Source of the DNA: Patescibacteria group bacterium
GTDB lineage: Bacteria; Patescibacteriota; Minisyncoccia; Phycocordibacterales; SBAW01
Length of the DNA: 43,985 bases
Reading direction: 5' to 3'
NCBI GenBank assembly: GCA_028866155.1
Contig: JAGWIT010000002.1
Location: forward strand, 1 to 43,985
The notes under the pieces were generated by a model. It did not search any database, was not told the DNA's origin, and saw only the letters and a program-made list of their open reading frames with translations. This document shows, one piece after another, positions 35,899 through 36,828 of the stretch. How positions within the stretch are numbered: position 1 is the first letter of the stretch; each line of letters begins with the position of its first letter. A program made the position numbers and the translations under genes.

Positions 35899-36828
35899 AT
35901 GGCAGGACTCAAAGCAATAAAAACTAAAATACGCTCGATAGAAAAGACGCGCAAAGTCACCAAAGCGATGGAGGCCGTCTCGGCTGCCAAAATGCGCAAG
36001 GCGCAGAGCTCGGCGCTCTCTGCGCGCGCTTACGCAAGAGCGGCGGTCTCCATTTTGGCGCGCGTGTCGGGCTCGCGCGAACTCAAGAACCATCCATTAA
36101 CACGTCAAAGTTCTCAAAGGCCCGATAAGAGACTTTACATTGTAATAACAAGTGATAAGGGATTGGCAGGAGCTTTGAACTCTTCGGTGCTTAGGATAGT
36201 TCAGAATGAAATTACTGATTTTGAGCAATATTCACTCGAAAGACCAAAAATTATAGCTATTGGCCGCAAAGCAAACGACTTTTTTGTTAATCGTGGATAC
36301 GAAGTTGTATATCACCCAAATGTAGATATCATTGACTATTCACTTATAAATCAAATAGTTGGCGCGGCTGCGGCGCGCTTTACCGAAGGCGCGGTCGACG
36401 TGGTAAAAATCGCCTATCAAAACTTTATCTCGACCTTCGAACAAAGGCCGACCTTGCGCACCATGTTTCCGCTGTCAGTCGAAGAGCTTCAAAAAGTCGT
36501 CGATGATATCATCCCCGCGAAAGGCGCCTTTTCTGACAAAGGTCTGACCTCCGCTCAAAGCGGAGGTCAGACCTTTGTCGTCAGCTACACGGTTGAACCC
36601 AGCGAGAGCGAAGTGCTCGACGCCATTTTGCCGCGCCTCGCGGGCATTTTCGTGTATCATGCGTTGCTTGAGACCAAGGCCTCAGAGCACTCTGCTCGCA
36701 TGGTGTCGATGAAGTCGGCGAGCGACAAAGCGCAGGAATTGACGCACTCCTTCACCTTGCAGTTTAATAAAGCGCGGCAAGCGGCGATAACCAGGGAAGT
36801 ATCAGAAATTATTTCAGGAACATTATGA
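35899..36828 (+). CDS. atpG: F0F1 ATP synthase subunit gamma
   Basis: An N-terminal [29 protein letters not shown] block and a C-terminal [23 protein letters not shown]...[15 protein letters not shown] block. Confidence 0.9.
36535..36579. repeat. Perfect 21-bp stem / 3-nt loop palindrome, family A, in frame inside atpG
   Basis: gacaaaggtctgacctccgct-caa-agcggaggtcagacctttgtc. All 21 pairs were verified by hand. The 45 nt make 15 codons ([15 protein letters not shown]), starting on a codon boundary. Confidence 0.9.

Follow-up and report, generated by a model that had tools for sequence, protein, structure and literature searches.

An in-frame palindrome in atpG of a Patescibacteria group bacterium, probably an intragenic copy of a very small REP/REPIN-type repeat

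The palindrome and its place in the gamma subunit

The whole stretch of DNA analysed here, 43,985 nucleotides from a Patescibacteria group bacterium and referred to below as the window, carries within its atpG gene the sequence GACAAAGGTCTGACCTCCGCT-CAA-AGCGGAGGTCAGACCTTTGTC, which is a perfect palindrome of 45 nt (21+3+21). A repeat finder places its arms at 36535-36555 and 36559-36579 and returns them as 21 nt each, 100% complementary and 3 nt apart, in agreement with what a first-pass annotation of the same DNA had read from the letters alone. The palindrome lies 636 nt from the first letter of atpG (36535-35899), which is 212 codons, and it therefore begins at a codon boundary and encodes 15 amino acids, as that annotation had also stated. 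The coordinates of the gene, the palindrome and the related units are collected in Table 1.

Table 1. Positions in the window of atpG, of its palindrome and of related units
Feature	Position	Strand	Basis or remark
Host gene atpG (F1 gamma subunit, 309 aa)	35899..36828	+	Open reading frame; Pfam ATP-synt E=1e-80
Perfect 45-bp palindrome, inverted doublet of two REP-like units	36535..36579	+	Translated, atpG residues 213-227
Unit 1, AGGTCTGACCT (11-bp palindrome, central T)	36540..36550		Motif search
Unit 2, AGGTCAGACCT (central A)	36564..36574		13 nt beyond unit 1
Homologous rarA doublet	12888..12930	+	In frame, read AKVRPSHNKGQTFA
Single variant unit CTCCGTAAGGTTgAACCTTACGGAG, also given as GTAAGGTTgAACCTTAC, core AGGTTGAACCT	15039..15063	+	Inside Zincin_1 gene 14755..15177

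The 21-bp hairpin in atpG is no chance event, and the earlier judgement that such a stem is unlikely to arise by accident is upheld by the numbers. The chance of finding a perfect 21-nt hairpin with a loop of 45 nt or less in 44 kb is estimated at ~5e-7, and hairpins with perfect arms of at least 12 nt and loops of at most 45 nt are found five times in the window against an expectation of 0.17, the maximum in 100 Markov-2 simulations being two. When arms of at least 10 nt are counted, eight hairpins are observed against a simulated mean of 2.8 and a simulated maximum of 8, a comparison which on its own is not decisive. Two hairpins with perfect 10-nt arms lie within genes, one at 15312-15351 in the VKOR gene and the other at 24778-24829 at the 5' end of uvrC, and by these numbers both could be due to chance.

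Taken with its surroundings (85 nt), the palindrome has a folding energy of -50 kcal/mol as RNA (z = -8.2) and of -29.7 kcal/mol as DNA (z = -8.0). A search of the window against Rfam at the gathering threshold returned tRNAs only, leaving the palindrome without an Rfam family, and a terminator scan found no U-tract 3' of the atpG hairpin, which is to say no terminator signature. Nothing that was found points to a host function for the palindrome, and the earlier expectation that the stem should matter for replication, transcription or translation finds no support here. On the antisense strand a 61-aa open reading frame (36475-36660, -) contains a peptide nearly identical to the one that the palindrome encodes; this reading frame is a consequence of the symmetry of the palindrome, and it could mislead gene callers.

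Among named proteins, the best matches of the atpG product are from Adlerbacteria and Paceibacterota; the closest protein shows no more than 73-78% identity. In an alignment with 32 relatives the palindrome occupies a variable loop that has the conserved motifs PAKGAF and YT(V/I)EPSE on its two sides, where the relatives have 10-13 unrelated residues as against 17 in the window protein. The 15 residues encoded by the palindrome are not conserved in this alignment, in keeping with the earlier reading of them as an insertion. The nearest relatives of the window atpG are without the palindrome, and the DNA of the loop is non-palindromic in P0003 and P0005; a further close relative without it, P0004, has in common with the window protein the unusual C-terminus EIISGTL. 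When set against solved structures, gamma residues 198-226 stand in the place of 4 aa in Bacillus-type gamma. An AlphaFold2 model of the subunit has a mean pLDDT of 80.5, which falls below 50 at residues 216-233, between a helix at 194-204 and the long C-terminal helix at 236-307. In other words, the palindrome is predicted to encode a disordered and unconstrained surface loop of gamma, presumably the same inter-domain loop that holds the regulatory insert of chloroplast gamma. Since the palindrome takes over the whole of the ancestral variable loop, with a net gain of only ~6 residues, the original boundaries of the insertion cannot be read in atpG.

Hairpins of other sequence are met at the same places in related genomes. 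The loop insertions in the atpG genes of P0004 (locus L121) and P0002 (L124) and in the rarA genes of L128/L131 are also long hairpins, with perfect arms of 13-16 nt and loops of 27-38 nt, all of them different in sequence. Insertions have landed repeatedly in these two loops, that of atpG and that of rarA.

A dispersed repeat unit in the window and in public genomes

The atpG element is built from a palindromic unit of 11 bp, AGGTCWGACCT, whose two copies, inverted with respect to each other, are separated by a 13-nt spacer and enclosed by short outer arms. This unit is present four times in the window, twice in atpG and twice in rarA, against 0.18 expected, and six generalised units are found against 0.5 expected; per 44 kb this amounts to two doublets and one variant singlet and no more. 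The first-pass annotation had pointed to a 14-mer shared with rarA, and this is confirmed: AGGTCAGACCTTTG stands at 36564-36577 in atpG and at 12915-12928 in rarA and is read as G-Q-T-F in both frames. The likeness is wider than the 14-mer, in that the rarA element, GCAAAGGTCAGACCTTCGCACAACAAAGGTCAGACCTTTGC, can be aligned with the atpG element along its full length of ~43 nt. Its units, at 12893-12903 and 12915-12925, both have a central A and are separated by a spacer of 11, and the element folds at z = -6. The variant unit in the Zincin_1 gene is a perfect 12+1+12 palindrome. An intergenic sequence at 2981-2991, AGGAATTTCCT, matches the generalised unit pattern AGGNNWNNCCT.

The insertions in rarA orthologues stay palindromic by means of paired changes, the window having GGTC/GACC where P0220 has GGAC/GTCC and L136 has GGGT/ACCC. 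Orthologous rarA genes in L127 (538-624), L136 (227-313) and L126 (538-612) likewise have an altered unit sequence in which palindromy is kept (AAGGACAGTCCTT, AGGGTAACCCT); in orthologous doublets both units are altered together, and one rarA relative has a single unit, GGGAAGGTCAGACCTTCCC. A metagenome scan for rarA orthologues returned mostly distant ones with the short ancestral loop, adding few members to the family.

Other palindrome families are present in the window. Two in-frame hairpins, in uvrC (25132-25209) and in tgt (18830-18899), have in common a 31-nt centre, TCCGTTCCCCTTGGC..CGCAGCGCTCAC, in opposite orientations, and the arms, which are unrelated, have no or hardly any mismatches (22 nt at 95%, of which a core of 19 nt is perfect; 17 nt perfect). 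The tgt gene (tRNA-guanine transglycosylase, 18479-19744) has an insertion of ~50 aa at residues 104-155, as against 3 residues in Zymomonas TGT, and the tgt hairpin lies within this insertion. A third family, with centre TCCGGAGAGAnnAACnnGAnnCCAACTCCTGC and A-rich/T-rich arms, is found at 14693-14750 and 15624-15655 of the window and at 1729-1760 of L125. The two window copies stand at gene ends and are possibly terminators, and a further copy, with 22-nt perfect arms, lies in frame in an N-terminal loop of the atpG gene of a relative (P0021).

Public genomes, represented by one genome per species and amounting to 596 Gb, were scanned for pairs of units 8-16 nt apart. The doublet occurs at two sites in the window and at at least 120 public loci, where ~20 are expected by chance on an estimate; the family of in-frame palindromic insertions that had been proposed from the window is hence a real one, which is mostly found in Patescibacteria and which lies in long open reading frames in about half of cases. 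Among the matches listed, ~70 loci are from Patescibacteria, in which the family is strongly enriched and spread over many classes, one metagenome-assembled genome (MAG), H43-bin105_1, supplying at least 12. In the same listed matches, the two units have inverted orientation in 68 of 73 doublets from Patescibacteria, and a spacer of 13 nt, as in atpG, is more frequent than any other.

The family is not restricted to extragenic DNA, and both doublets of the window are intragenic. By a stop-free-frame test, which allowed no stop within 60 codons to either side, 37 of the 67 testable Patescibacteria doublets among the listed matches lie inside long open reading frames, a share which random positions of the same loci also reach (55%). 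Of the host reading frames, again among the listed matches, 17 out of 20 are recognisable Pfam proteins; the hosts include LigA (three times), UvrA, UvrC, PolA, TopA, SMC, LepA, RNase R, LeuRS, trigger factor, a Mur ligase and a P-type ATPase, among others. The units are translated as RSDL, G(Q/L)T or VRP, and the frame that reads TGA through a T-centred unit is rare. Within these matches the element is present both in intergenic DNA and in genes that are unrelated to one another, where any of the three frames may be used, and in many copies the outer arms are locus-specific yet complementary, extending to 24 nt in L058.

Direct tandem arrays of the 11-bp unit with a period of 22-24 nt are found in MAGs from outside the Patescibacteria, at loci of Spirochaetaceae, Verrucomicrobia, Acidobacteria and Bacteroides (L004, L005, L016, L051, L079, L087 and L104 in Spirochaetaceae MAGs; L022/L026; L044/L057; L065). 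A scan of viral contigs gave a single match and no sign of a phage vehicle. A literature search on the unit sequence returned unrelated primer matches only, and searches on in-frame palindromes in the Candidate Phyla Radiation and on RAYT/REPIN in Patescibacteria found nothing relevant.

RAYT-like genes and known palindromic repeats

The reading frames that adjoin units in L052, L011 and L034 have the motif YCLLPNHFHLL, and the L052 protein matches Pfam Y1_Tnp (PF01797), the IS200-like transposase family. With phmmer and a profile of ten proteins, Y1_Tnp homologues are found in 13 of the 120 motif-selected loci listed, six of them above the Pfam PF01797 cut-off, and no RAYT-like gene is found in the 44-kb window. 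Their sole NCBIfam match is NF047646, REP-associated tyrosine transposase, at 19-52 bits against an equivalog cut-off of 80 bits; they are distant relatives of the curated RAYTs and not equivalogs. L094, L110, L058, L012 and L052 retain both the HUH motif and the tyrosine (in GxLFQGxYK), which are degenerate in four others. The HUH histidines and/or the catalytic tyrosine are lost in the Patescibacteria RAYT-like genes at L034 844-1509, L024 427-1125, L097 1972-2646 and L112 4448-5149, which may be inactive or domesticated copies. Of the RAYT-like proteins, L052 was compared by sequence with solved structures, and none matched. Clustered at 90%, the family to which these proteins belong numbers more than 4000 members, which go under the names transposase or RayT, and the named matches listed are mostly from Patescibacteria.

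The units stand close to these genes. In L094 the gene has TAATATAGGTCAGACCTAT on both sides and an inverted doublet on its 3' side, in L110 a doublet follows 15 nt 3' of the stop, and in L052 and L011 a doublet lies directly upstream of the Y1 gene; Y1 genes flanked by AGGTCWGACCT units are met in related genomes only. Two RAYT-like genes that were picked regardless of the motif have flanks that are also palindromes or terminal inverted repeats (TIRs), in a sequence other than AGGTCWGACCT. Because the flanks of these two independently picked genes differ, the pairing of unit and enzyme is lineage-specific and, for the organism of the window, only a proposed one. Before one of the two, P0241 (Taylorbacteria), stands a perfect 21+1+21 palindrome, CCGAGCATCTGATTCTCGGGA/TCCCGAGAATCAGATGCTCGG (L211 561-603), one arm of which is repeated directly after the stop codon, and the same flank is present in L012. 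The RAYT-like gene of L112 (Patescibacteria) has GTAGG..CCTAC flanks. In the Spirochaetaceae, L104 and L117 also have RAYT-like reading frames.

The closest comparison is with the REP/REPIN-RAYT systems (Bertels & Rainey 2011, PMC3116915; Messing 2012, PMC3479197; Bertels 2017, PMC5581495). REPINs are inverted doublets of REPs which form hairpins and lie near RAYT genes, and of which 14/1067 overlap genes in P. fluorescens SBW25 (PMC3116915). In common with these systems, the Patescibacteria family has short palindromic units in inverted doublets, with a less conserved spacer, which fold into one long hairpin; the elements are dispersed and multi-copy across the listed public loci, a Y1 (HUH) transposase gene is flanked by its own units in related genomes, and compensatory changes preserve the hairpin. 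The differences are of several kinds. The element is ~35-45 bp in size with a 13-nt spacer, as against spacings of 71-110 bp in P. fluorescens; the unit is a perfect 11-bp palindrome, (N)nAGGTCWGACCT(N')n, without the GTAG or CGTC head of classical REPs; the enzymes are only distantly related to curated RAYTs; and ~55% of the Patescibacteria copies among the listed matches are intragenic, in contrast to the few REPINs that overlap genes in SBW25.

Intragenic REPs have also been described. They are known with GTAG and CGTC tags, next to the Rickettsia palindromic elements RPE-4, RPE-6 and RPE-1 (Di Nocera 2013, PMC3733652); in Opitutus terrae and Rickettsia conorii (RPE-4, RPE-6) more than half are dimers that encode 20-30 aa, with many in genes of replication and repair, UvrABCD, PolA and DnaE included (PMC3733652). 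The present family resembles them in that its palindromic repeats lie in frame in known proteins and are translated, and in that its hosts are of the same kind (here rarA, UvrA/C, LigA, PolA and TopA), and differs from them in unit sequence, in tag and in clade. Moreover, the CGTC REPs are without a known transposase, whereas the Patescibacteria unit family has a candidate one. The palindrome is not an RPE, since RPE-1 is a Rickettsia element of 100-150 bp, compared with 45 bp here, from another clade and of unrelated sequence, and in-frame behaviour alone is common. A second comparison from the same source is with TIRYT/TIRtron, in which genes for tyrosine transposases are bordered by self-complementary TIRs (PMC3733652), some TIR families being both self-complementary and in close pairs; the Patescibacteria RAYT-like genes are similarly flanked by lineage-specific palindromes or TIRs, for example the 21+1+21 palindrome of P0241.

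The coding palindromes of Nematomorpha, for which conversion by template switching is the proposed mechanism (PMC6649704), are also perfect inverted repeats in functional coding genes; in both cases codon position 1 of one arm is matched with position 3 of the other, and position 2 with position 2, and active conversion is proposed to maintain the perfect arms. In Nematomorpha, however, the residues that the two arms encode are conserved and the palindromes have no repeat unit in common, whereas the atpG arms encode a non-conserved, low-confidence loop and belong to a dispersed family.

Origin and meaning of the atpG palindrome

On this evidence the palindrome is probably a REP/REPIN-type repeat, very small and non-autonomous, of which a copy has come to lie within a gene. 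The AGGTCWGACCT family is new in the literature searched, and the kind of element, as seen in intragenic REPs and in the RPEs of Rickettsia, has already been described. A RAYT-like enzyme would recognise the unit where it forms a hairpin in the single-stranded DNA of the replication fork and would move doublets, one of which would have been placed into atpG, where it would have landed in a disordered surface loop of gamma without constraint on its sequence. Being free of stops and in frame, the atpG copy is translated as 15 loop residues; in essential genes only copies of this kind, in tolerant loops, would be expected to survive. This mechanism of transposition and the neutrality of the copy for its host are suggested by known RAYT and IS200/IS605 biology, and the mobility of the unit family itself is likewise a proposal, no presence/absence polymorphism having been seen. 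The perfection of the arms could reflect either a recent insertion or correction templated by the hairpin, that is, by template switching; hairpin-templated correction is suggested because the units of rarA orthologues have changed on both sides at once. The locus-specific complementary outer arms are not predicted by insertion of the IS200/IS605 type. The unusual points are the small size of the element and the fact that in Patescibacteria the family does not avoid genes.

It is unlikely that template switching during replication, known also as quasi-palindrome correction, made and perfected the palindrome locally from the ancestral loop without any mobile element. Such an origin would account for arms that are perfect or almost perfect in all cases, for the locus-specific outer arms of many copies elsewhere and for the paired changes by which orthologous rarA insertions (window, P0220, L136) keep their palindromy, and it has the precedent of the mechanism proposed for Nematomorpha (PMC6649704). 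It leaves unexplained, however, an identical 11-14-mer in two unlinked genes of the window, the common doublet architecture, orientation and 13-nt spacing in ~70 listed Patescibacteria loci, and the adjacency of units to Y1 transposase genes. Template switching may nevertheless act as a secondary process which extends or repairs the arms.

Very improbable is a selected cis-regulatory role for the hairpin in the atp operon, whether in pausing translation, in providing an RNase III or processing site, or in attenuation that adjusts gamma relative to beta. The operon is polycistronic and highly expressed and the hairpin is of the high stability given above, but the hairpin is absent from every relative examined, the closest included, and the same element lies in unrelated genes and also in intergenic DNA, with all three frames represented and with neither an Rfam family nor a U-tract. 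There is similarly little chance that the paired units are operator- or iteron-like sites, spaced by ~two turns of the helix, which a dimeric DNA-binding protein of the host, other than a transposase, would bind. A centre-to-centre spacing of 22-24 bp would suit such sites, as would the direct arrays with the same 22-24 bp period in the Spirochaetaceae, Verrucomicrobia, Acidobacteria and Bacteroides loci. Against this, the units are scattered in the coding regions of unrelated housekeeping genes without association with promoters, and the Y1 transposase is the one protein family that recurrently adjoins them. An artefact of assembly or amplification (a fold-back chimera or an adapter) is scarcely credible for, although the window is a metagenome contig and fold-back errors can yield perfect palindromes, atpG stays in frame with conserved sequence on both sides, the family is present in dozens of independent assemblies from different projects, and the palindrome to our knowledge matches no common sequencing adapter.

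Other candidates were set aside. The density of the unit is much too low for a DNA uptake sequence, and the footprint of an excised transposon would leave the doublet with its spacer unexplained. A restriction site was dropped, as we know of no restriction enzyme that recognises the sequence of the palindrome unit. The notion that the arms are inverted duplicates of the target was also dropped, the host loops being too variable in the rarA, tgt and atpG comparisons.

A wider proposal may be put forward tentatively, namely that REPIN-like palindromes of Patescibacteria colonise coding DNA like any other sequence and so form a lineage-wide source of in-frame loop insertions in essential proteins (ATP synthase gamma, RarA, UvrA/C, LigA, PolA and TopA). 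Their perfect arms may be actively maintained by hairpin-templated conversion, and the RAYT-like proteins without HUH or tyrosine may be domesticated binders of the hairpins. Were this so, the same process would also have produced the other palindrome families of the window, in which the centres are conserved and the perfect arms unrelated.

In practical terms, annotators should be warned that such insertions break up domain matches and that the strand antisense to them looks like an open reading frame. REPs are defined as extragenic, and a family that stands in frame inside essential genes of ultra-small bacteria puts this rule to the test. Its short unit, together with a candidate Y1 transposase, makes it a tractable model for the entry of elements into coding DNA and, if the pattern is genome-wide, lineage-specific protein insertions of Patescibacteria would have a concrete source in selfish palindromes.
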